From the NCBI GenBank assembly GCA_965237675.1, contig OZ250150.1:1728001-1792000 (forward strand): DNA of 64,000 nt, given 5' to 3'. Both the position numbers and the translations under genes were made by a program. This DNA is from Candidatus Latescibacterota bacterium (GTDB lineage: Bacteria > Latescibacterota > UBA2968 > GCA-2709665). Positions 5,956 through 64,000 of the stretch are shown here, piece by piece. Each line of letters begins with the position of its first letter. Positions within the stretch are counted from its first letter, which is position 1. The notes under the pieces are model-generated. The model was given only the letters and a program-made list of their open reading frames with translations. It was not told where the DNA came from and made no database searches.

Positions 5956-7989
5956 ATGTTTTCAAAAAAGAATATTGTGTTCATTGCCACTTTGGCGTTG
6001 CTGGTATTCGTGGCATTCGTCGCTGCGGGTTCGGACGCGGATGCTGATCGCACGACAGTACAAGGGATCTCCGTCAATTCCTATGACCATGTCACCGCGT
6101 TTCTTCCGGACTTCGACGGCGACGGGACGGTTAGCTTCAGTGATTTCTTGCAGTTTGCGGCAAAATTCGGACTAAGTCAGGGCGATGACCGATATGATGC
6201 GATGTTCGATCTGAATGGCGACGGGGAAATCGGGTTTTCGGACTTTGTGATCTTTGCACGGAACTACGGGAAGGACCTTTCTTTCGGGATGCTCCTGCCC
6301 TGGGACCTTTCCAGGATTGTGCCGATCGAATCCGTCCGGTCCGTGCCTGCGGGCACGCGTGTTTTTATGCGGACCGAATTCGCCAACGGCGAACTCGCCG
6401 ACCTGGAAATGAAGTTCATCCAGGTCGTGGACGATTTCATGCCGCCCATGCCGGTCTACATGGTGGAAGCCTCCGATTCGGTCCTGGTAAGCCTGGGAGG
6501 CATTTCCAAGGGCATGAGCGGTTCCCCCATTTTTTCTGAGCAGGGCGCGTGGGGCGCGATCGCCTTCGGCTTTAACGCCCAGGACAGCCCACCTTATTAC
6601 TTTTTCGCCACGCCCATGGAATGGGTCATTGGCGCCAGGGGAACGGTACCCCTGGCCAAACGCGCAGCCACGTGGGGCGGAAGCAGCATCGTACCTCTGG
6701 ACGTTCCGCTGTTGAGTACCGGTCTCAGCCGTGGCCAGCTAACGCCGGAAGGGCGTCCGTCTCTCCTGAGCGACGCGGTCGCCGCCGGTTTGACGACGGA
6801 CCGCCAGACCAGCTTCGCGCCGGGCAGGCCGCTGGCGGTGGGTTTGCTGCTGGGCGAACTGACACGCGCCGCCTTCGGGACCATCTCCTTCGTGGACGGC
6901 GACCGGATCTATGGTTTCGGACATTCCATGCGGGATGCAGGACCTGTGGCGCTTCCCATTATTGAAGCAAAGGTGCTCGGAGAAATCTCCAATCTGTCGG
7001 CGCCCTTCAAATTCGCAACACTGAACCCGACGGTGCGTGGCACGCTGACAGAAGACCGCTTGCCGGGGGTTCGGGGCGTGCTCGGCGACGGGCCGACCCT
7101 GGTGTCGATCAAGAGCGTGTATGTGTTTCCATCGGGCGGCGACGTGGAGCTCTTGCATCGGATGCCCACCGCCGGCGTGAGCCCGAATATGTCTGTCGAT
7201 CTGGTCGTCAATGCGTTTTTCAGACCTCTGTCCAACCGGGTCGAGCAGGATCCGGACCACAGTATCCGCGTTACCGCGGACGTTTCCTTTGACGGTACCG
7301 ACTCCACGCTCTCGCGTACCCGTCTCCATGCCTCGCCCGACGGACGGCTCGGCTCCCTGATCCGGAATGCCGCTTCCGACGTGTCCTTCGCGCTCTCCGG
7401 TCTGATGACGAGGGACGATTACGCATTGCAGGTGAGGGATGCCGGTGTCCACCTCGAAATAATCTCCGAGCCTCGTTTCGCCAGGGTCGTTGAAGTGACT
7501 GCGGACACCGTCATCAGTCCCGGCGACATGCTCGCGGTTACCGCAGCATTGCGCGTAGGGCGGCGCAGCGACCGGGAGATCGAATTGTCGCTCAGTGTGC
7601 CGGATTCGTTTCCCGCCGGCGTCTACCGGCTCGAAGCGGGTTCGGTTGCGGCTTTGGGGGAAGACGACGCCGGTGGCGGCGGACCGCCTTCGTTTTTCGG
7701 CCCCTTCAGGGGCGAGGAGACGGTCGACGAAGTCTTTGCGAGGGTCAATAGCGAGGACGACAACATCGTGTTGAAAGCCCGGCTGACGTTCGAAATGCCG
7801 CTCGAAGCGCCCGGGGGTGCGGGCTCCCCGCCGGGCTCCGGGTCTGGGGGCGCATCACCGCCCGGTCGAGGGAGAGGCGTTCCGCGCCAGGCGCCCCCGC
7901 CGATTCTTTCCGCACAAAAGGACGTCGATCTGTTTCTGGAGGGCTCAAAGAGCCTGAACATAAAGGTCGTCACCTCGACAGGGCCGTGA
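5956..7989 (+). CDS. Secreted SpoIVB-like peptidase S55 domain protein with N-terminal dockerin/EF-hand module
   Basis: Signal peptide; DFDGDG...DLNGDG module; GISKGMSGSPIF serine motif; IYGFGHSM; Gly/Pro-rich C-terminal linkers. Confidence 0.8.
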   Translation: MFSKKNIVFIATLALLVFVAFVAAGSDADADRTTVQGISVNSYDHVTAFLPDFDGDGTVSFSDFLQFAAKFGLSQGDDRYDAMFDLNGDGEIGFSDFVIFARNYGKDLSFGMLLPWDLSRIVPIESVRSVPAGTRVFMRTEFANGELADLEMKFIQVVDDFMPPMPVYMVEASDSVLVSLGGISKGMSGSPIFSEQGAWGAIAFGFNAQDSPPYYFFATPMEWVIGARGTVPLAKRAATWGGSSIVPLDVPLLSTGLSRGQLTPEGRPSLLSDAVAAGLTTDRQTSFAPGRPLAVGLLLGELTRAAFGTISFVDGDRIYGFGHSMRDAGPVALPIIEAKVLGEISNLSAPFKFATLNPTVRGTLTEDRLPGVRGVLGDGPTLVSIKSVYVFPSGGDVELLHRMPTAGVSPNMSVDLVVNAFFRPLSNRVEQDPDHSIRVTADVSFDGTDSTLSRTRLHASPDGRLGSLIRNAASDVSFALSGLMTRDDYALQVRDAGVHLEIISEPRFARVVEVTADTVISPGDMLAVTAALRVGRRSDREIELSLSVPDSFPAGVYRLEAGSVAALGEDDAGGGGPPSFFGPFRGEETVDEVFARVNSEDDNIVLKARLTFEMPLEAPGGAGSPPGSGSGGASPPGRGRGVPRQAPPPILSAQKDVDLFLEGSKSLNIKVVTSTGP

Positions 7990-51923: not shown

Positions 51924-52703
51924 ATGAAATTGGAATTGCAGCAGGAATACGATGAGAAGGGTTTCTGTATCGCCCGCGGGGCCATTGACGCGGGTCTTGC
52001 GGCCGAAACGGTCGAGCACGTACAATGGTTGGTCAGAAAACATCCGGATACGCGGCCGGAGCGCTTGCACCATCAACTGATTGTGGACGACCCGTTTATG
52101 CACCGCCTGGTCTGCGACGACCGCCTCGTGGACATCGCGGCGCAGTTCATCGGCCCTAACGTGGCCATGTTCGGGGCCCACTATATTGCCAAGAAACCCG
52201 AAACGGGACAGGCCGTGCGGTGGCACCAGGATGGTTCCTACTGGCCCCTGGAGCCGATGGAGGTCACCACGCTGTGGGTCGCGGGCACGGACTCCACCGT
52301 GGAGAACGGATGTATGCGCGTCGTGCCGGGGACGCATACCCAGCGCCTGTTGAAGCGCTCGGAGATGGTGGACCTGGATCCGGACAAGTACGTCCTCGGC
52401 ATCGGGATGCGTCCCGATCAAATTGACGAGGCCGACGCCTTTGACCTGGAACTCAATGCTGGGGATATTTCCATCCATCACCCCAATATCGTCCACGGCT
52501 CCAACAGCAATACGTCGGACCAGTGGCGGGTGGGGCTCACCCTTCGCTATATTCCCACCAGCACCCGGGTGACACGAGACGGGCATCCGTCCATCCTGTG
52601 CCGGGGGGCGGTGATCCCCGAGGTGGGAAACCTTTACGCGCCGCGGCCGACGTACGTGGAAGGAAAGCACATGCCCTTCGACGGTTGTGAGACCTGGGCG
52701 TAG
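51924..52703 (+). CDS. Phytanoyl-CoA dioxygenase (PhyH) family protein
   Basis: AGGAG RBS; WHQDGSYW, ENGCMRVVPGTH, HGSNSN, RVGLTLRY. Confidence 0.92.
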   Translation: MKLELQQEYDEKGFCIARGAIDAGLAAETVEHVQWLVRKHPDTRPERLHHQLIVDDPFMHRLVCDDRLVDIAAQFIGPNVAMFGAHYIAKKPETGQAVRWHQDGSYWPLEPMEVTTLWVAGTDSTVENGCMRVVPGTHTQRLLKRSEMVDLDPDKYVLGIGMRPDQIDEADAFDLELNAGDISIHHPNIVHGSNSNTSDQWRVGLTLRYIPTSTRVTRDGHPSILCRGAVIPEVGNLYAPRPTYVEGKHMPFDGCETWA

Positions 52704-52706
52704 CGG

Positions 52707-54330
52707 CGTTCCCGGGATCGAGGGCATCCTGCCCTCGACACATAGGGCGCGAGGCCCGGGCGCCATCGTTTCCCGCCGAGATCATTGAGTCCCCGAGCGG
52801 CGGTTTTAAAGCCTGGCGATAGGTGGCCACGCCGCACACGGATGTGACCAAAGGCGGGACGCCCGCCCGGAGAGTTCACCCGTAACGGAAGGGTTAACGC
52901 CGAACAGACGGGGATGGAACAGCAATCACGAATGTCGTTCCCGGGATCGAGGGCATCCTGCCCTCGGCGGGTAATGCACGAGGTCCTTGCCCCGTCATTT
53001 CTGGCCACACTTATTGATTCCGCTAGCGCCAGCGGGCACAAACCATGGGTAACGAAGGGGATGCCGTACACGGTTGCGGCCGCGAGCGGAACGTCCGGAC
53101 GCCCGCCACCTAGGGGGTATTGCGGATGTACCCTCTTAAATTCGTCTTGGAGAGAGAACGCACGTGGAGTTCGCTCCGTGCCAAATCAACGCACTCACCT
53201 CGTTCTCCGAACTGGTGGTGTCAGCAATTGTACGGTCCATGCGTGATTAAATAGGGCCAACGGCGTCCTGCCGTCGTCGAGTACAGGATGCTCGCGAACC
53301 GGGTATTAGCAGGTCACGTTTTGTTCGAGGGCAGGATGCCCTCGGTCCCAGGGTTCGGACGTCCGGTGTGACGCCCCCTTCTCCGATCTGGTGTCAGATG
53401 TAATGGAACGCGTCAAATACGGCAATTCAGATTCGATGAAACCCAGTTCAAGTCGAGTGCAGGATGCCGTCGGTCCGGGTATTGGTGGGTCACGTCCTAG
53501 TCGAGGGCAGGATGCCCTCGATCCTGAGACGGGGAGTGGAAGGAGTGGAGTGGCGCCGTCAAGCCAATTTCACCGCACCCACCTTCCGCACTTTGAGGCC
53601 GGAGAAGTACCCCAACACATCTGTTTCAGACTGGCGGACAGCCTGTCGCAGAACCTGCTCCAACAATGGGAGCGCGAATTGGAGGGACTCCCGGAGGCGG
53701 AGCGCCTAAAACGCCGCCGAATTGAGGAGGCACTTGATCTGGGCCATGGTGCCTGCTGGTTGCGCCGCCCCGAGATCGCCGCCCTGGTGCGCGATTCCCT
53801 GCAGTACTTTGATGGTGACCTGTATCGTCTTCATGCGTGGGTCGTCATGCCCAATCATGTCCATGTACTGGTCACACCACTGGGTGATCACTCCTTGTCC
53901 GGCATCGTGCACTCCTGTAAATCTTACACGGGCAACCAGGCGAACAAGATACTGGAGCGGAATGGAAAGTTCTGGTATGAGGACTACTTTGACCGTTTCG
54001 TGCGCGACGAAGATCACTTTGCAGCGATTGTAAATTACATCCATTTGAACCCGGTCAAGGCAGGGCTGTGTGCGGATCCGGAAGATTGGGAATGGAGCAG
54101 TCGTCACAATCGTCGCTCCCGGGGCCGAGGGCATCATGCCCTCGACACATAGGGCGCGAGCCCCTGGCGGGAAGTGGCGATGTCCCACGCCGACGTGGCT
54201 GCAGGCGGGACGCCCCGGAGAATTCACCCGTAATGTAAAGGTTGACGCCGGGCAGATGCGAATGGAGCAGGTGTCACGATCGTCGTTCCCGGGACCGAGG
54301 GCATCCTGCCCTCGACAGGTAGGGTGCGAG
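52707..54330. repeat. REP array around the RAYT gene (about 9 copies of the CGAGGGCA-TCC-TGCCCTCG hairpin)
   Basis: Copies near 52718(+), 52948(+), 53257(+, degenerate), 53277(-, degenerate), 53325(-), 53453(-, degenerate), 53501(-), 54126(+), 54296(+). Confidence 0.9.
53550..54152 (+). mobile_element. REP-associated tyrosine (Y1/IS200-like HUH) transposase
   Basis: GTG 53550 after AGGAG; HLPHF...FRLADSL, VVMPNHVH (HUH), FW..DYFDRFVR, YIHLNPVKAGL, WEWSS. Confidence 0.9.
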
Positions 54331-54420
54331 GGATGGGCGCAGCGTCGCACATTTCTGTGCATCCATCCAGAGAAGCCGACGGGTAGCGAACTTCCGTCGT
54401 AATTACGAAACAAATATCCA

Positions 54421-57993
<3,573 letters not shown>

Positions 57994-58080
57994 TTGGAGG
58001 GAAATCGCCTCACAAAAGTAGATTGTGACGTGTCTATATTGTCTGGAATGTCCGGCCCGAATTCTTCTTTGGTAGAGAGG

Positions 58081-58260
58081 TCATCCTTGACGGGCTTCGG
58101 ATAAATCGTTACCATTTCTGACCACTTGTCCGTGTACCAGATCTTCGATCTCGTCTTCAAAGTTCTCGATGTAGGCTTTCACTTCAATCTCCAAGGCGGC
58201 ATGCAGCATTTGCCTTGCGCCAGCAGAGAGCAGATCTTCCGAGCTCGGTTTCTCTTCACT
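58081..58260 (-). pseudogene. IS256-family transposase N-terminal remnant
   Basis: DLLSAGARQMLHAALEIEVKAYI...QVVRNG resembles IS256 N-termini; truncated. Confidence 0.6.
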
Positions 58261-58384
58261 TCTTGCTATCCCTTCTGCCTCGTCCGACGTGTCCAGGGGT
58301 AATGGTAACACTCCAGGATACACTCTTGTGTCTCTTTTTATCCGCAGCATTTGAGTATAAGTCCCTTCAATCACAGGGATTGCG

Positions 58385-59257
58385 ATGATCTATTATCTTC
58401 CGACCGTGCGCAGTACACGCGAGGGGTGGGAAACGCTCGCCAAACTCGCCAAAACTGCTCAGGGTCTCTATTCGGATGAACTGCAACTCAACATGTCAAA
58501 GTTGGATTTTTTCGACGCCAACATGGCCGCACCCCTTGGCGCGATTCTTTCAAGGGTCGCTGACGGTTTCAATACCATTCGCATCGTCGATATGCCGGGC
58601 CCAGTCGAGACTATACTTCGCAAGAATCTGTTTCTAACTCATTATTGGTACAAATCACTGGATGACAACAATAATACAACCATGCCATTTCGCCGGCTGC
58701 GCCTGAGTGACGAGGGTGAGTTCGAAGAATATATCCATTGGCAACTTACCGGAAGAGGCATCCCCAGAATGTCCGATGGCGCAAGCAGAATCTTCAAAAA
58801 AAAGGTTTTTGAAGTGTATCAGAATGCCGTATTCCATTCTGAATCAAATCTTGGTGTCTTCGTCTGTGGCCAGTTTTTCCCGCAACAGAACCGGCTTGAT
58901 TTTACGGTTGCAGATGCCGGTATCGGAATTCGAGAGAATGTTCGTCGGTATTTCAATAATCCTCGTATCAACTCGCTTCCAGCTCTCAAATGGGCACTCG
59001 AGCCATATCACACCACGAAAAGTGGGCCGTATCCCGGTGGGTTAGGCCTTGAGTTTCTACAGAAATTCGCTCGTCTGAATGACGGTAAGATTCAGATTGC
59101 CTCCCGTTTCGCATTCTATGAGTTAAGCCGTGGCACGGAAACTTTCGCGAATATGGCGGTTGACTTTCCCGGGACTGCCGTGACCATTGAAAATAACACT
59201 GCTGATGAGAGTATTTATTTCCTGGAGAGTGAAAGAAAAGCCGACAGTCCGTTTTGA
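58385..59257 (+). CDS. GHKL (HATPase, anti-sigma-kinase-like) ATP-binding protein with STAS-like N-terminus
   Basis: N box EVYQNAVFH, G1 VADAGIGI, G2 TTK...GGLGL, G3 FPGT; no sensor or HisKA helix evident. Confidence 0.8.
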   Translation: MIYYLPTVRSTREGWETLAKLAKTAQGLYSDELQLNMSKLDFFDANMAAPLGAILSRVADGFNTIRIVDMPGPVETILRKNLFLTHYWYKSLDDNNNTTMPFRRLRLSDEGEFEEYIHWQLTGRGIPRMSDGASRIFKKKVFEVYQNAVFHSESNLGVFVCGQFFPQQNRLDFTVADAGIGIRENVRRYFNNPRINSLPALKWALEPYHTTKSGPYPGGLGLEFLQKFARLNDGKIQIASRFAFYELSRGTETFANMAVDFPGTAVTIENNTADESIYFLESERKADSPF

Positions 59258-59276
59258 ATTGGGAAAGAGGACAAGC

Positions 59277-59636
59277 ATGACGCGAGAAATTACAGTTCGA
59301 GTATTTGACATCATTGGTGGTCCCCTGTGCGTATCTACCAGCGACGGCCAACGTCTGTACGACAAGATTGCTCCACTCTTGAGGGCCGGGTCGCCGGTGG
59401 TTCTATCCTTCGAACGGATAGAGATTCTCATCTCGGCTTTTCTCAACGCGGCAGTGGGTCAGCTTTACGGCGAGTTACCCGAGGAAAGCATCCGTGCGTT
59501 GCTCTCGTTTCGCGATTTGGCGGATGACGACCGGGAGATGCTGGAACGTGTAATTGAAAACGCAAAAATGTACTTTAAAACCCCCGATGATTTCGATCGC
59601 GTGTGGCGTGAGGAACTAGGCGATGAAGAAGAATAA
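59277..59636 (+). CDS. STAS-like domain protein (DUF4325-like)
   Basis: ATG after GAGG; DGQRLY...VVLSFERIEILISAFLNAAVGQLY. Confidence 0.82.
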   Translation: MTREITVRVFDIIGGPLCVSTSDGQRLYDKIAPLLRAGSPVVLSFERIEILISAFLNAAVGQLYGELPEESIRALLSFRDLADDDREMLERVIENAKMYFKTPDDFDRVWREELGDEEE

Positions 59637-60177
59637 GGCGTACGACTTGGCTGCATATCCGTTTAGCAGAGGCGAGACGTTCTTGCTTGATGCGAACGTT
59701 TGGCTCTATTTGTATCCACCGCCATCGGGGAACAGGAGCACAATCACCCAGAAATATAGTAACGGATTAAAGTCCATTCGATCCGTAGGTTCACGGTTGA
59801 TCATGGACGCTATGGTCTTGAGTGAATACTTGAATACCTATTGTCGCATTGAATGGAAGGCTCTACACCTGACCCGGTATCCCAATTTCAAGACATTTCG
59901 CAAATCGGCGGCCTTCAGTGGGGTCGGCAAAGGTGCGGCATCCTTTGCAACATCCATGCTCAAGCTCTGTGCGCGCCACGATCATCCGTTTGCCACGGCC
60001 AATATCAAGCAGGTGCTGGCAGATTTTACAGCGGGAGTGACTGATTTCAATGACGGATTGCTGGCTGAGACCTGTCGTCGCAATGGCTGGAAACTGATTA
60101 CGAACGACGGCGACTTCAGCACGGGAGGCATAGAAGTGTTAACCGCAAACTCGAGACTTCTGGCAGCATGCCAATGA
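59623..60177 (+). CDS. PIN-domain ribonuclease
   Basis: LLDANVW, LSEY, DFND, LITNDGDF acidic tetrad; overlaps the STAS gene by 14 bp. Confidence 0.88.
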   Translation: MKKNKAYDLAAYPFSRGETFLLDANVWLYLYPPPSGNRSTITQKYSNGLKSIRSVGSRLIMDAMVLSEYLNTYCRIEWKALHLTRYPNFKTFRKSAAFSGVGKGAASFATSMLKLCARHDHPFATANIKQVLADFTAGVTDFNDGLLAETCRRNGWKLITNDGDFSTGGIEVLTANSRLLAACQ

Positions 60178-60383
60178 AGGCTTTCACAATACGTGCATCG
60201 ACCTCACCCTATATCTCAATGCCATCGCCGAGGCAAATCCCCGGCCGAGCGCGTTGGTCTCGATACGTCTGACGAGCTGAGTCACGGGTTTCGCGATCTA
60301 CGCGACGCAGTCGAAGAGAATTCTTGTCTGAGTTCATCTGATATATCCTGAGGAGACGTCGAAGCAAGATCTGAATTGCCCGT

Positions 60384-60418
60384 GAGGATAGCCTGCCTGA
60401 CACAGGCCGGCTATCCTC
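60384..60418. promoter_or_regulatory. Hairpin upstream of the higA-like gene (terminator or operator)
   Basis: GAGGATAGCC-T-GCCTG-ACA-CAGGC-C-GGCTATCCTC. Confidence 0.4.
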
Positions 60419-60436
60419 GCAGGCGGAGAGCAAGTA

Positions 60437-60882
60437 ATGGCGACGAACCAGTACCGCCCCGACTATGCGGTTCCCCCTGGTTGGGTCCTGGCGGAAAGAC
60501 TTTCGGCCCAGGATATTTCGCGCGCGGAGTTCGCACGAAGATGTGATCGCTCGGCTAAACTCATCAGCGAGATTATCTCGGGGAAAGCCCCCATAGAGCC
60601 GAAGACGGCGCTTAAATTCGAAAGGGTGCTGGGGGTCGATGCGGATATCTGGTTGGATATTGAGAAGGACTATCAGTTGCACCAGATCCGACAAGCCGGG
60701 GCCAGGGAAGCGTAGCCGGTAGCGACGCCGAAGGCGCATTCGCGATGGCGGAGGTACGCTGCATTGCCAATAAGCAGAGCATAGCGCCCGGCATCGTCGT
60801 CGGAAGCCTCCTGCATGTATGGCACCTCCCCTGGAATCGGCTGAACAACCTGAAAGTGCGATTGGAGTGGGTTGAGAATTGA
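60437..60882 (+). pseudogene. Internally deleted HigA-ImmA/IrrE-type gene: intact HTH (60437-60715) plus out-of-frame C-terminal fragment
   Basis: PDYAVPPGWVLAE...SEIISGKAPI HTH; another frame encodes IAPGIVVGSLLH..LPWNRLNNLKVRLEW* ending at 60882. Confidence 0.7.
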
Positions 60883-60933
60883 TTCCCAATGTAACGGCCG
60901 TAAGAAGCGCCCTCGTGAGTCGTCAGACCGGAG

Positions 60934-62475
60934 ATGGAAGTTATGGTAGATTCAACCATACGAGACTCGCTTGAACTCGAAGTCGCTGATTTCGGACCGA
61001 TCGTCAATGCCAAAATCGATCTGCGCCCGTTGACGGTATTCATCGGACCGAGCAATACTGGGAAATCTTATCTGGCAACGTTGATCTATGCGCTGCATAT
61101 GTATTTTACGGGTAGATCGATCACTTCGCGGTTCTTTTTGAACTACGAGAGACTTCTTGATCTTGGTCCAAGCTTCGTAGACAGGGAAACTCTCAACGCG
61201 CTTAACGAATTTCTGAAGCAAGTGACGAACGGGATAGGAGATATCCGGAGCGAAAACGAAGCGGTTCTTCCCATCCCAATTGTCAAGGCAATTTGCTCAA
61301 TGTTTGAGTTACAGAACGATCAACTCCACAGTGAAATCGAAAGGTGCTTTGGGATCGACAGTGCCAGCGCACTTATCCGGAAAGGGAACAGGCGATGTGC
61401 GCGGATTGTATTACGGAAATCTACTTCAAGGGATTCGGCATCGTTTGAACACGAACTGATTCTGAAGTCTAATGCACCAGAATTCGTGACGGCGATGCCC
61501 AATGTGGAACAACTGAGGGTTAAACTCGACGATAGGAAAGAGTTCGTTGAGTACTACGACCGCCTGAAGAATACGTTCTTGAGAGCTGATCAAATGGGCC
61601 AGGATTCGTATCGACAAGCCTTGGGGCCAATCAATCATTTGCTTGGACTCGCTCTTCCGCACCTTGTAGGTTCCCTTTATCGCGCGGCATTCTATCTCCC
61701 CGCCGATCGAACCGGCGTGATGAATAGCCATCAGGTGGTCGTGAGTGCGTTGATCCAGAACGCTACAACTGCCGGTCTGCGTCCCGATGAAGAAACTCCA
61801 ATGCTGTCGGGTGTTTTGGGTGATTTTCTGCAAAACTTGCTCGTTTTGCCCAGTGCGGCAATTCGTCAAAGCACGTCCAGGAAACATCTGGGTGCGCGAA
61901 TTGAAGATCTGATTCTCGGCGGATCGATTCAGGTCGAAAGATCGGAGTTGATTAGCTACCCGCACTTCACCTACCAGCCATCGGGATGGAAACATCCGAT
62001 GCCGTTGATGAATGCCTCTTCCATGGTATCGGAAATCGCACCGGTAGTGATGTTTCTTCGCCATCTGGTCAGCCCCGGCAGTACACTCATTATCGAAGAA
62101 CCCGAATCACACTTGCACCCTGCCATGCAGGTCGAATTTACCCGTCAGATCGCCGCGCTTGTTAAGGCGGGAGTCAGGGTAATCGTCACGACGCACAGCG
62201 AGTGGGTACTTGAGGAACTCGCCAACGTCGTGCGACGCTCCGAACTTCCCGAGTCCCGTCGAAAGGAGATGCCCCACGGCGAATTTGCCCTTCGTCCCGA
62301 GCAGGTGGGGGCATGGCTGTTCAAGCAGAAGCGCCGCCCGAAGGGATCGGTCGTCGAAGAAATTCGATTCGATCCTGATGCAGGTGGGCTTGAGAGTGAT
62401 TTCAGCGAAGTTGGCCGACAACTCTACAATGATTGGGCGACGATCGGTAACCGTATTGCAGGAAGTACCGAGTAA
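60934..62475 (+). CDS. AAA_15/AAA_21-type (ABC-fold) ATPase
   Basis: Walker A GPSNTGKS, YLPADRTG, ASSMVSE, Walker B IIEEPESHLHP, TTHS. Confidence 0.9.
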   Translation: MEVMVDSTIRDSLELEVADFGPIVNAKIDLRPLTVFIGPSNTGKSYLATLIYALHMYFTGRSITSRFFLNYERLLDLGPSFVDRETLNALNEFLKQVTNGIGDIRSENEAVLPIPIVKAICSMFELQNDQLHSEIERCFGIDSASALIRKGNRRCARIVLRKSTSRDSASFEHELILKSNAPEFVTAMPNVEQLRVKLDDRKEFVEYYDRLKNTFLRADQMGQDSYRQALGPINHLLGLALPHLVGSLYRAAFYLPADRTGVMNSHQVVVSALIQNATTAGLRPDEETPMLSGVLGDFLQNLLVLPSAAIRQSTSRKHLGARIEDLILGGSIQVERSELISYPHFTYQPSGWKHPMPLMNASSMVSEIAPVVMFLRHLVSPGSTLIIEEPESHLHPAMQVEFTRQIAALVKAGVRVIVTTHSEWVLEELANVVRRSELPESRRKEMPHGEFALRPEQVGAWLFKQKRRPKGSVVEEIRFDPDAGGLESDFSEVGRQLYNDWATIGNRIAGSTE

Positions 62476-62960
62476 TGTGTGGCTTAGTCGAACAGCTGAA
62501 AAATGGACTTCCTGAAGGGACCATCGTTAAGAGATGCTCGAAAGAGGGTTGCAAGGTTCCGTTGAAAAACGCCCCGTCGCCGCATCTGGTTATGGATCTG
62601 GATCACCCTTATTTCGACCTGAAGGATAAGACACATTGCGATTTTCTGTTTATCAGTTGCGACTGCAATGGTGGCGACAACTGGGTCATGCCACTGGAAT
62701 TAAAACGTGGCAGCCCGGATGCAACAGAAATGGTATCGCAGCTACAGGCTGGATCCGGCGTCGCCGAAGCTCGGATTCCGGACGAACACAAGACGCATTT
62801 CCTTCCGGTTGGGGCCTATGGAGGCCGTTTGCATATTACGCAAAGGGATAAGCTCAGAAAGTCTCGAGTTTCGTTTCGCAGAAAAGAATACCAGATTAAA
62901 CTCATCCGATGCGGAACACCTTTGAAAAATTCTCTTCTGCGGAGTTCGAGCGCGAAATGA
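62475..62960 (+). CDS. Hypothetical protein, PD-(D/E)xK-like nuclease candidate
   Basis: TAATG coupling to the ATPase; CDFLF...PLELKRG...SQL pattern. Confidence 0.55.
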
Positions 62961-64000
62961 ATACCCACCGAAAAAAACTTATCGAAGTCGCCCTTCCGCT
63001 TGACGCTATCAACGCCGCGTCGGCTCGTGAAAAGTCGATCCGCCACGGCCACCCCAGCACCCTTCACCTCTGGTGGGCGCGACGCCCACTGGCGGCAGCG
63101 CGGGCAGTGATCTTTGCGCAGATGGTGGATGATCCGTCGGCGCACCCGGACCTGTTTCCATCCGAGGCTGATCAGGAGAAAGAACGCCAACGCCTGTTTC
63201 GCCTTATCGAGGAATTGGTGAAGTGGGAGAACACCACCAACGAGGCCGTTCTGGAACGGGCGCGATCCGAGATCCGCAAATCCTGGCGTCGGACCTGCGC
63301 CGACAATGCGGACCATCCACGTGCCAGCGAGTTGTTCAACCCGGACAAGCTGCCCGCCTTCCACGACCCGTTTGCGGGTGGCGGCTCGTTGCCGCTCGAA
63401 GCACAGCGCCTGGGACTTGAGGCCCACGCCAGTGACCTCAACCCGGTGGCCGTGCTTATCAACAAGGCCATGATCGAGATCCCGCCGAGATTTGCAGGCA
63501 GACCACCGGTGAATCCCGAAACAAGGCCCGGCGGATCGTCTACCAAGAAGTCTCTTGTTGAGCGACAATGGAAGGGCGCCGAAGGACTCGCGGAGGACGT
63601 ACGCTACTACGGCCAGTGGATGCGTGACGAAGCTGAGAAACGCATTGGACATCTATATCCTAAGATCGATGTCACCCCGGAGATGGTTCGGGAGCGGCCT
63701 GACCTCAAACAGTACAGTGGGCGCACATTGACGGTGATCGCTTGGCTGTGGGCGCGGACGGTGAAGAGTCCGAACCCGGCCTTTGCCGATGTGGACGTGC
63801 CACTGGCATCAACTTTCACGCTTTCAACGAAGAAAGGGAAGGATGCGTATGTCGAGCCGGTAATTGACGGGCGCGGTTATCAATTTACTGTTAGGGTAGG
63901 AAAGCCGAAAGATGCAGCTGCGGCGAAGGCGGGAACCAAGCTAACGCGAGGAGCGAACTTCCGCTGCATGATGTCCGGTACAGCACTCACGGCTGGTTAC
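62957..64000 (+). CDS. DUF1156 adenine DNA methyltransferase (5' part; runs off the window, absent from the ORF track)
   Basis: ATGA overlap; [49 protein letters not shown]; [17 protein letters not shown]. Confidence 0.92.

Follow-up and report, generated by a model that had tools for sequence, protein, structure and literature searches.

Background

VapKSC is a phage-defence toxin-antitoxin system published in 2026 (Chambers, Rani, Min, Villa and Corbett, EMBO J 2026, PMC13373217; PDB 9z7o), which consists of a kinase (VapK), a STAS-domain antitoxin (VapS) and a PIN-domain toxin (VapC). As reported there, Escherichia VapC is toxic and its D28A mutant is not, VapS neutralises VapC, and the phosphomimetic exchange S48E in VapS abolishes both binding and neutralisation. 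The Escherichia system gives about 2-log protection from Bas42, the one phage for which that paper reports protection, and this effect is lost with S48A, D28A or the VapK exchange F54A. In the published model VapK is switched on by ssDNA that results from DNA damage; kinase activity and activation by ssDNA are shown in the paper only for the paralogous CapK, whereas the case for VapK itself is built on an AF3 model and on the F54A and S48A phenotypes. CapK and its partner CapS, which are described in the same paper as regulators of adjacent immune operons, likewise combine a STAS+GHKL kinase and a STAS substrate in which the phospho-acceptor serine is conserved, and here too ssDNA is the proposed activator. 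They differ from VapKSC in that CapK has an N-terminal HTH, CapS has a C-terminal wHTH, and their output is operon de-repression (PMC13373217).

Defence genes are also known to be embedded within larger defence loci. According to the preprint of Payne et al. (2024) the slots between hma genes hold many unrelated autonomous systems, among them HEC-03, which pairs an ABC ATPase with a PIN effector. PIN effectors near BREX are mentioned in a paper on BREX diversity (PMC12839542), which names neither STAS nor GHKL.

Two further types of module resemble parts of VapKSC. In type II VapBC systems an overlapping upstream gene encodes the protein that neutralises the PIN toxin, and in the SpoIIAB-SpoIIAA and RsbW-RsbV pairs a GHKL serine kinase acts on a STAS antagonist. 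Classical partner switching of the latter kind includes a sigma factor and a PP2C phosphatase.

Here we describe a kinase-STAS-PIN gene triad of a Candidatus Latescibacterota bacterium. Very probably it is an intact member of the VapKSC family that was acquired horizontally and occupies the slot between hmaA and hmaB of an Hma system as a passenger of low GC content.

Results

Gene layout

The window, that is the whole stretch of 64,000 nucleotides that was analysed, contains the triad and its surroundings as follows.

hmaA, 54421..57993, plus strand: SNF2 helicase with NOV_C; upstream border of the slot that holds the cassette
vapK (gene A), 58385..59257, plus strand: 290 aa; N-terminal STAS-like domain (about residues 1-125), followed by a GHKL kinase/ATPase domain
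vapS (gene B), 59277..59636, plus strand: 119 aa; antitoxin of the STAS type (DUF4325), whose C-terminus has a helical region and an acidic tail
vapC (gene C), 59623..60177, plus strand: 184-aa PIN-domain toxin, predicted RNase
HigA-like HTH gene, 60437-60715, plus strand: NCBIfam HigA TIGR02607, E = 5.8e-15; slot passenger outside VapKSC
AAA_15 ATPase gene resembling PD-T4-4_A, 60934-62475, plus strand: PADLOC PD-T4-4_A, E = 6e-34; slot passenger outside VapKSC
Gene for a 161-aa partner, 62475-62960, plus strand: slot passenger outside VapKSC
hmaB, 62909..64000 (runs off the window end), plus strand: DUF1156 DNA adenine methylase; downstream border of the slot

The three genes with their coordinates, a gap of 19 bp between vapK and vapS (59258-59276) and an overlap of 14 bp between vapS and vapC (59623-59636) had been recognised in an initial annotation and are borne out by the list of open reading frames. 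In an alignment with 79 homologues the first residue encoded from the ATG at 59277 is methionine in 77 of 80 sequences, which fixes this codon as the start of vapS and rules out the longer, TTG-initiated reading frame that begins at 59187. Apart from vapS the list contains no small plus-strand gene adjoining vapC. The reading frames in the interval between hmaA and vapK all lie on the minus strand (58084-58374 and 57951-58160); neither these nor a 226-aa reading frame antisense to the HigA gene matched any Pfam family, so that an interpretation of 58084-58374 as a transposase fragment is unsupported.

The GC content is 0.49 at 58-60 kb and 0.63-0.64 at 54-58 kb. We read the low GC content of the cassette as a sign of foreign origin and hence, very probably, of horizontal acquisition. 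A scan of positions 57900-61000 for promoters and terminators revealed no terminator-like site between hmaA and vapK; over the entire range it was uninformative, with five promoter-like sites against 2.4 +/- 1.7 expected, none of them usefully placed, and one terminator-like site against 2.9 expected.

The VapS antitoxin and the VapC toxin

VapS matches the Pfam family DUF4325 ('STAS-like'; E = 2.2e-16), and its sole sequence match in the PDB is 'Escherichia VapS' (9z7o_A, E = 2.3e-13; query residues 9-113, chain residues 23-125). The motif ILISAFLN, in which the initial annotation had pointed out a retained serine, spans residues 50-57 and contains Ser53. This residue pairs with residue 66 of the 9z7o_A chain, which by residue count corresponds to native S48 after an 18-residue tag. 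The position is occupied by serine in 72 and by threonine in 8 of 80 sequences, that is by Ser or Thr in all 80, and Ser53 is the predicted phospho-acceptor of VapS. The AF2 model of VapS (pLDDT 87.3) has helices at residues 83-101 and 103-113. In Foldseek, searched with a copy of the library that does not hold 9z7o, the model had no match at E <= 0.001; the weak matches included SpoIIAA and RsbV at E = 0.14-0.16 with TMt values of 0.54-0.57.

VapC was assigned to the Pfam family PIN (E = 2.2e-7), with a weak match to a VapC subfamily of NCBIfam (E = 0.0079). Its sole PDB sequence match, weak as well (E = 6.3e-4), is 'Escherichia VapC' (9z7o_C). By residue count D23 pairs with chain residue 28 and thus with D28, the residue whose exchange renders the Escherichia toxin harmless. 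The acidic residues are conserved almost without exception in the sequences that cover them (D23 in 77/77, E68 in 73/73, D144 in 70/70, D162 and D164 each in 70/71). The window therefore encodes a PIN nuclease with all five of these residues present, and since Pfam identifies the upstream neighbour of vapC as DUF4325/STAS only and no VapB-like gene is present, the earlier description of an intact PIN protein lacking a VapB-type antitoxin stands. This also sets the locus apart from type II VapBC modules, an identity that we reject: the antitoxin is a STAS protein without a DNA-binding domain, and release of the toxin is proposed to occur via phosphorylation.

Complex prediction, which had been put forward as a check on the triad, gave a model of VapC with VapS that scored 0.89 as compared to 0.01 for the best of three controls; 116 of 157 solved complexes come up to the mark applied, as do 2 of 215 mismatched pairs. 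Contact agreement between runs was at least 94% and the pLDDT of the partner at least 90. For VapKSC one expects the VapS serine to be buried between the two proteins and the VapS C-terminus to come close to the VapC active site. In the model, in line with this, Ser53 touches VapC residues 30-32 and 108, and the interface includes the C-terminal VapS residues 105-110 and 112-114 as well as VapC residue 161. Because a like complex (9z7o) has already been solved, the passing score speaks for likeness to that complex rather than for binding by the window copy.

The VapK kinase

The assignment of VapK as a STAS-like domain followed by a GHKL ATPase, as made in the initial annotation, is supported by Pfam on its relatives, by the AF2 fold and by Foldseek. 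In the window protein itself HATPase_c is matched only weakly (E = 4.7e-4, 21 bits, under the gathering cut-off of 26.4 bits), and among the members of its family in 34 of 49. Pfam calls no STAS domain at the N-terminus of the window protein, whereas it finds STAS_2 in 6 and STAS in 1 of the 49 family members, and many close homologues carry a precomputed PF13466 assignment. The AF2 model (pLDDT 94.4, pTM 0.92) shows an N-terminal domain of alternating beta and alpha elements that begins at residue 1. Relatives and the secondary structure of the model together thus point to a putative STAS domain. The ATPase motifs are conserved: the N-box with E143, N147 and H151, the G1 box D177-x-G179-x-G181 and the G2 box G218-G219-x-G221 are kept in 78-81 of 81 sequences, with E143, N147, H151, D177, G219 and G221 present in all 81. 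Foldseek matched the model to the P4 domain of CheA (E = 2.2e-5), and the best coverage of a whole target was obtained with SpoIIAB (1l0o_A and 1til_E, TMt 0.63 and 0.65). A profile of 16 VapK sequences, run against the sequences of the PDB, found the catalytic domain of ZraS as its sole match (E = 0.0035) and no structure of a VapK or CapK.

The kinase had also been called sensor-less. This was an interpretation, and it does not sit with the published work, where the interface between the STAS and GHKL domains of VapK is the proposed ssDNA sensor (PMC13373217). Aromatic residues are frequent at two neighbouring VapK positions (F42 and F43 in the window protein), with F or W in 74 of 81 sequences at column 42 and F in 69 of 81 at column 43; any equivalence of these to Escherichia F54 is a guess.

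PADLOC v2.0.0 matched VapK to a single model, DrmA (E = 4.9e-7, 133 of 1750 profile positions), and returned no family for VapS or VapC at E <= 0.01. Since it thus offered neither a named nor a candidate system for these two proteins, the identification as VapKSC came via the literature and the PDB; the check with PADLOC and the literature that had been proposed for the triad was negative in its first half and positive in its second (PMC13373217). HEC-03 and the other HEC or PDC systems are likewise rejected, as the respective PADLOC v2.0.0 models match neither VapS nor VapC; with HEC-03 the triad shares a PIN effector and an ATP-binding partner embedded between hma genes, but the ATPase is of the GHKL and not of the ABC type.

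Conservation of the triad

Homologues of each of the three proteins number in the hundreds, and the relatives of VapK make up 1856 representative clusters at E <= 0.001. Loci were collected with the 16-sequence VapK profile, which yielded 123 confirmed relatives, and the best 80 were kept; because this closer alignment was used, the set is biased towards relatives whose identity to the window protein is 40-96%. Among these best 80 of 123, which come from many phyla, VapS follows VapK in 79 and VapC follows in 77. The three loci without VapC (L019, L063 and L080, the last also without VapS) are all cut by a contig end. The order of kinase, STAS protein and PIN toxin, whose conservation had been named as a check, hence holds wherever the contig allows, and given this order across phyla and the hundreds of homologues the triad is not a chance arrangement. 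A plasmid of Deinococcus gobiensis has a triad of ATP-binding, STAS-like and PIN genes, and with the ATP-binding protein of this triad the window VapK shares 33% identity (E = 5e-45). The genome of D. gobiensis is listed in Dataset EV3 of PMC13373217, as are the organisms of two of our loci (L034 and L059).

From the flanks of the 80 loci 520 reading frames were clustered; for 33 of the 40 largest clusters, representatives were compared with PADLOC only. Clusters present in nine or more loci were HmaA, HmaB, HmaC and PglX. No fourth gene recurs with the triad, and neither a sigma factor nor a PP2C phosphatase is recurrent in these flanks, as judged by non-recurrence and not by family scans. 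A classical SpoIIAB/RsbW partner-switching module is rejected on this ground. Other differences are that VapK carries a STAS domain of its own and that VapS sequesters a nuclease instead of another partner of the kinase; the likeness lies in the GHKL serine kinase acting on a STAS antagonist and in the folds, SpoIIAB providing the best whole-target match for VapK and SpoIIAA/RsbV, with weak E values, for VapS. The earlier proposal that a toxic RNase is set free once the STAS protein is phosphorylated agrees with the published VapKSC model (PMC13373217).

The kinship of VapK and VapS with CapK and CapS (PMC13373217) might instead suggest that the genes form a CapKS-like transcriptional controller of the downstream hmaB or ATPase cassette and no toxin system at all. 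We find this reading barely credible. Pfam and NCBIfam matched no HTH family on either protein: VapS, with 119 aa and a DUF4325 match alone, has no wHTH, and VapK opens directly with its STAS domain and has no N-terminal HTH. CapKS identity is rejected for these reasons. In addition, a PIN gene with intact catalytic residues follows wherever the contig allows, and the proposed output is release of this toxin.

Genomic setting

The hmaA product matches PADLOC HmaA PDLC00659 (E = 0, 1649.7 bits over residues 1-1189) and the Pfam families SNF2-rel_dom, Helicase_C and NOV_C, and the hmaB product matches PADLOC HmaB PDLC00660 (E = 7.2e-189) and Pfam DUF1156 (E = 1.2e-32). The 161-aa protein encoded at 62475-62960 matched no family in Pfam, PADLOC or NCBIfam.

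A similar setting is common among the relatives. Hma context was found in 35 of the 80 loci, 21 of which have the helicase upstream and hmaB downstream, and nine loci lie inside or beside BREX; in eight of these nine the triad is located between pglX and a downstream gene of the BREX locus, mostly an HmaA/BrxHII-like helicase. In every locus inspected the triad is on the strand of these flanking genes. As regards enrichment in defence islands, which had been suggested as a check, recognised defence genes stand beside the triad in at least 38 of the 44 loci whose flanks are full. The association with Hma and BREX in the clade of the window is strong, phylogenetically structured and above the 36% (103 of 289) of published VapKSC operons that lie within 10 kb of any defence gene (PMC13373217).

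It could mean that VapKSC of this clade is less than fully autonomous. The cassette would then be coupled in function to Hma or type III BREX as a second layer, in which VapK senses ssDNA or another product when the SNF2-helicase system engages phage DNA or is blocked, and VapC fires only together with the host system or once this has failed. Besides the numbers of embedded and co-stranded loci, the hmaA-vapK interval without a terminator-like site would fit such coupling, and a comparable coordination has been raised for capKS sandwiched between restriction-modification and immune operons (PMC13373217). Mapped onto the VapK tree, the Hma label requires 9 changes as compared to a mean of 25.9 after shuffling, with none of 500 shuffles as low; this is, however, no proof of coupling, because related sequences share their labels. 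Pairwise distances of HmaA and VapK are only weakly correlated (r = 0.34, n = 21; 40 of 2000 permutations as high), which points to exchange of cassettes rather than to co-evolution. Moreover, cloning of the Escherichia operon by itself is enough for protection, PADLOC recognises nothing within 10 kb of it, and the published operons near a defence gene are a minority (PMC13373217). Finally, Hma slots gather many unrelated autonomous systems (Payne et al. 2024), and Septu, HEC-01, HEC-06 and PD-T4-4-like genes were found in the same slots of our related loci. We therefore think it unlikely that the cassette is coupled to its host system. The earlier idea that the RNase serves as a backup when the neighbouring restriction system is inhibited is unsupported, as in the publication the trigger is ssDNA that stems from DNA damage, and the operon of Escherichia is protective with no PADLOC neighbour within 10 kb (PMC13373217).

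Alternatively, the triad could be a general DNA-damage or stress toxin-antitoxin addiction module, which is found in defence loci because it stabilises mobile islands and not because it defends against phages. The low-GC cassette lies among other mobile passengers, one copy is on the Deinococcus plasmid, the published protection concerns a single phage, and the line between immunity and stress response is called fuzzy for VapKSC by its authors (PMC13373217). Against this, point mutants abolish the 2-log protection of the Escherichia system (PMC13373217), and the defence genes that adjoin the triad in most loci with full flanks speak for a role in defence. We regard a pure addiction function as improbable.

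Discussion

We conclude that the triad, as a VapKSC system, is already known (PMC13373217). It shares with the described system the order of the genes and the three kinds of protein, a kinase built of STAS and GHKL domains, a STAS protein whose C-terminus has a short inhibitory helix, and a PIN protein like VapC. Its VapS and VapC are homologous in sequence to the proteins of the crystal structure, and the Ser/Thr and the catalytic Asp are conserved at equivalent positions. Different from it, the window copy is divergent, as seen from the E value of its VapC match and the 33% identity of its VapK to a listed member, is known from its sequence, and sits inside an Hma system. The initial annotation could recall no characterised system of this composition, and we find that one has been named, an outcome that it had itself listed among those that would refute its proposal. 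The mechanism that it arrived at from the sequence alone is essentially that of the 2026 publication on VapKSC, so that the finding is right without being new.

By analogy with the Escherichia system VapC would be a toxic nuclease, as shown for the homologue and as its intact catalytic residues suggest for the window copy. VapS, by means of its STAS domain and C-terminal helix, would bind and inhibit VapC and bury the conserved serine in the interface, an arrangement that crystal structure and genetics establish for the homologue and that is predicted for the window copy. VapK bound to ssDNA, which may arise from phage infection or DNA damage, would then phosphorylate Ser53 and thereby free VapC to arrest the cell, a step that is deduced for VapK even in the published work (PMC13373217). 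Most likely the module acts on its own, and it most likely lies inside Hma because Hma and BREX loci are known to gather defence cassettes between their genes.

What we contribute is the natural Hma/BREX setting of VapKSC. The main text of PMC13373217 does not mention it: the words 'Hma' and 'embedded' occur there zero times, as does 'hma' in Dataset EV3. In view of the counts of Hma, BREX and other defence genes in the related loci VapKSC is a clear case of 'guilt by embedding'. It seems doubtful that VapKSC of the window clade, as a preferred and long-standing resident beside HmaA/BrxHII-type SNF2 helicases, forms with them a wired two-layer defence that reads ssDNA; if it did, restriction-like defence would come first and RNase-mediated arrest would follow. 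The Hma/BREX setting is in any case a natural place in which to study possible cooperation between a toxin module that senses ssDNA and a helicase-methylase system.

Identity of the gene triad

The feature consists of three consecutive genes:

58385-59257, plus strand: gene A (vapK), ORF of 290 aa, weak HATPase_c match in Pfam
59277-59636, plus strand: gene B (vapS), ORF of 119 aa, Pfam DUF4325
59623-60177, plus strand: gene C (vapC), ORF of 184 aa, Pfam PIN

The feature is real, with the genes lying where the initial annotation had placed them, separated by a 19-bp gap between A and B and joined by a 14-bp overlap of B and C. Pfam assigns gene B to the 'STAS-like' family DUF4325 (E 2.2e-16) and gene C to PIN (E 2.2e-7), and matches gene A weakly to HATPase_c (E 4.7e-4, under the gathering score). 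Judged from its family, the domain identity of gene A is clear: 34 of 49 aligned relatives match HATPase_c and 7 have a STAS_2 or STAS match in their N-terminal half, and each residue of the GHKL N, G1 and G2 boxes (E143, N147, H151, D177, G179, G181, G219, G221) stands unchanged in 78-81 of the 81 sequences of the VapK alignment. Foldseek searches with the AF2 model of gene A (pLDDT 94.4, pTM 0.92) returned GHKL kinases, led by CheA P4 (E 2.2e-5), the highest whole-target coverage being that of the anti-sigma kinase SpoIIAB (TMt 0.63-0.65).

The triad is the already known system VapKSC and is not new. As reported by Chambers et al. (EMBO J 2026, PMC13373217), vapKSC encodes VapK (STAS and GHKL kinase), VapS (STAS with a short stretch at the C-terminus) and the PIN protein VapC; 289 operons were described there and the VapS2VapC2 crystal structure was solved. 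The sole PDB sequence matches of genes B and C are the two chains of entry 9z7o, 'Escherichia VapS' (9z7o_A, E 2.3e-13) and 'Escherichia VapC' (9z7o_C, E 6.3e-4), and by this measure both are homologues of the crystallised proteins. Counting residues through these alignments equates Ser53 (in ILISAFLN) with S48 and Asp23 with D28. Column 53 of the VapS family holds Ser in 72 of 80 sequences and Thr in the other 8, like the 'absolutely conserved serine or threonine' of VapKSC (PMC13373217). In addition, the window's VapK is 33% identical to the kinase of a Deinococcus gobiensis plasmid triad (E 5e-45); that genome is listed in Dataset EV3 of PMC13373217, which also includes the organisms given in the records of two of our loci, L034 and L059. 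The initial annotation named no characterised system of this composition; the literature provides one (PMC13373217).

Conservation and related kinase-STAS genes

Scanning one genome for each species gave 123 confirmed relatives of gene A. The analysis used the best 80, whose identity to the window protein is 40-96%, a sample biased to the clade of the window. Many phyla appear in the record titles of this set, as does a single archaeon, of the Thermoplasmata. Gene B follows A in 79 of the 80 loci and C follows B in 77, always on the same strand, and the three loci lacking C (L019, L063 and L080, the last also without B) all end at a contig edge. No fourth gene accompanies the triad among the flanking-gene clusters of the 80 loci. 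Degraded copies occur: vapC is short in L003, L021 and L033, vapK is split in L075, and the triad is broken throughout in L058, where vapK, vapS, vapC, hmaA and hmaB are all fragmented (region 6001-7838).

Related genes were also seen in other settings. Streptococcus phage Javan172 (L081, MK448860.1, 2129-4171) carries a VapK-like protein (307 aa, HATPase_c) and a DUF4325 protein (114 aa) without a PIN gene, in a prophage lysogeny module ordered HTH repressor, M78 peptidase, kinase, STAS, integrase, and a Francisella prophage table lists a similar pair, its members 293 aa and 112 aa (DUF4325) long (PMC7924643). Such pairs in temperate phages may have a different output. Protein P0380 (581 aa) matches Mrr_cat_2 and a ResIII helicase and aligns in its C-terminal part to VapK 67-285; it is either a restriction helicase-GHKL domain fusion or a gene-call artefact.

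Mechanism

The proposal that a kinase and a STAS protein gate a toxic RNase was a correct guess when set against published VapKSC. For the Escherichia homologue it is reported that VapC is toxic unless mutated (D28A), that VapS neutralises it unless altered by S48E or C-terminal deletion, that the serine is buried in the interface, and that the operon protects about 2-log against phage Bas42, which D28A, S48A or VapK F54A abolishes (PMC13373217). Phosphorylation of VapS by VapK, which was insoluble, and activation of VapK by ssDNA are deduced there, the activities having been demonstrated solely for CapK (PMC13373217). For the window triad we infer every functional statement.

The modelled VapC-VapS complex of the window scored 0.89, against 0.01 for the best of three controls, passing a mark that 116 of the 157 solved complexes had reached, as had 2 of the 215 mismatched pairs, with contact agreement of at least 94% and partner pLDDT of at least 90. 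In the model Ser53 of VapS contacts VapC 30-32 and 108, and the interface includes the VapS C-terminal residues 105-110 and 112-114 and VapC 161, neighbour of D162. The model supports binding of the two proteins; since 9z7o is solved, however, the pass reads as likeness to that entry rather than as binding. Searched by itself with Foldseek, the VapS model matched nothing at E <= 0.001; SpoIIAA and RsbV came up as weak matches.

Other parts of the initial proposal fared less well. The picture is not that of classical partner switching, since neither a sigma factor nor a PP2C gene turns up repeatedly beside the triad in the 80 loci; the kinase was called 'sensor-less', whereas the published VapK model has sensing (PMC13373217); and for firing upon inhibition of the neighbouring restriction system we found no support.

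Embedding in Hma and BREX loci

The triad lies in a slot between two genes of the Hma defence system:

54421-57993: hmaA (SNF2 helicase), upstream border, PADLOC HmaA, E 0
62909 to window end: hmaB (methylase), downstream border, PADLOC HmaB, E 7.2e-189

PADLOC (v2.0.0) identifies the flanks as Hma and has no model matching genes B or C. The slot also carries a HigA-like HTH gene, an AAA_15 ATPase gene resembling PD-T4-4_A and that of the ATPase's 161-aa partner. GC is 0.63-0.64 at 54-58 kb but drops to 0.49 at 58-60 kb, which marks the passengers as foreign to the host genome. A slot with passengers is exactly the Hma habit described by Payne et al., who report embedded genes in 62.7% of 1,485 Hma systems (bioRxiv 10.1101/2024.01.29.577857).

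Several neighbours deserve mention. The HigA-family antitoxin-like gene (60437-60715; TIGR02607, E 5.8e-15, above the family cut-off) lacks an evident HigB toxin gene in the 259 bp before it; it could be an orphan, or it could regulate the ATPase cassette downstream. That second passenger (60934-62960) comprises the 513-aa AAA_15 ATPase (PADLOC PD-T4-4_A, E 6e-34; NsnB, E 2.9e-26) and the 161-aa protein, which has no family match and, by eye, a PD-(D/E)xK nuclease-like D...ELK pattern; the pair also adjoins the triad in L001 and L003. The 391-bp hmaA-vapK spacer (57994-58384) holds minus-strand ORFs only (58081-58374, 57948-58160; no Pfam match), and L001 (96% identical) has a 120-aa minus-strand ORF at the equivalent place. 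Just upstream of hmaA lies an IS200-like Y1 transposase gene (53391-54152; Y1_Tnp, E 1.7e-8), flanked within 52700-54400 by a palindromic element of about 28 nt around CGAGGGCATCCTGCCCTCG that occurs at least six times and in both orientations, an arrangement reminiscent of a REP element and its RAYT transposase.

Context of the triad in related loci (labels from PADLOC scans of flanking-gene cluster representatives; counts are lower bounds)
Context; 80 loci; 44 full-flank loci
Hma; 35 (of which 21 have the helicase upstream, hmaB downstream); 22
BREX; 9 (8 embedded); 5
Adjoining other labelled defence genes; 9; 6
Unlabelled; 27 (many on short contigs); 11

A second PADLOC scan, covering 81 of 84 candidate ORFs in 10 of the 11 unlabelled full-flank loci (all but L012), gave matches at E <= 1e-10 in five (L010, L011, L038, L057, L065), so that defence genes adjoin the triad in at least 38 of the 44. 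On the VapK tree (79 rows, without the short L058 and L062) loci with the Hma label group strongly: 9 changes suffice, whereas shuffled labels need 25.9 on average and none of 500 shuffles is as low. Kin sequences carry the same labels, and the 'other' group takes in loci of unlabelled context. Only a weak correlation links the distances of HmaA to those of VapK (r 0.34, n=21; 40 of 2000 permutations gave a value at least as large). The simplest reading is that the triad is a cassette that moves between slots of Hma and BREX loci; a two-layer defence in which the triad is wired to Hma or BREX would be a less likely alternative. The main text of PMC13373217 never mentions Hma or embedding, and in its Dataset EV3 brex_type_III occurs 6 times and 'hma' 0 times. 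The new element, VapKSC embedded in Hma and BREX, adds modestly to a known system.
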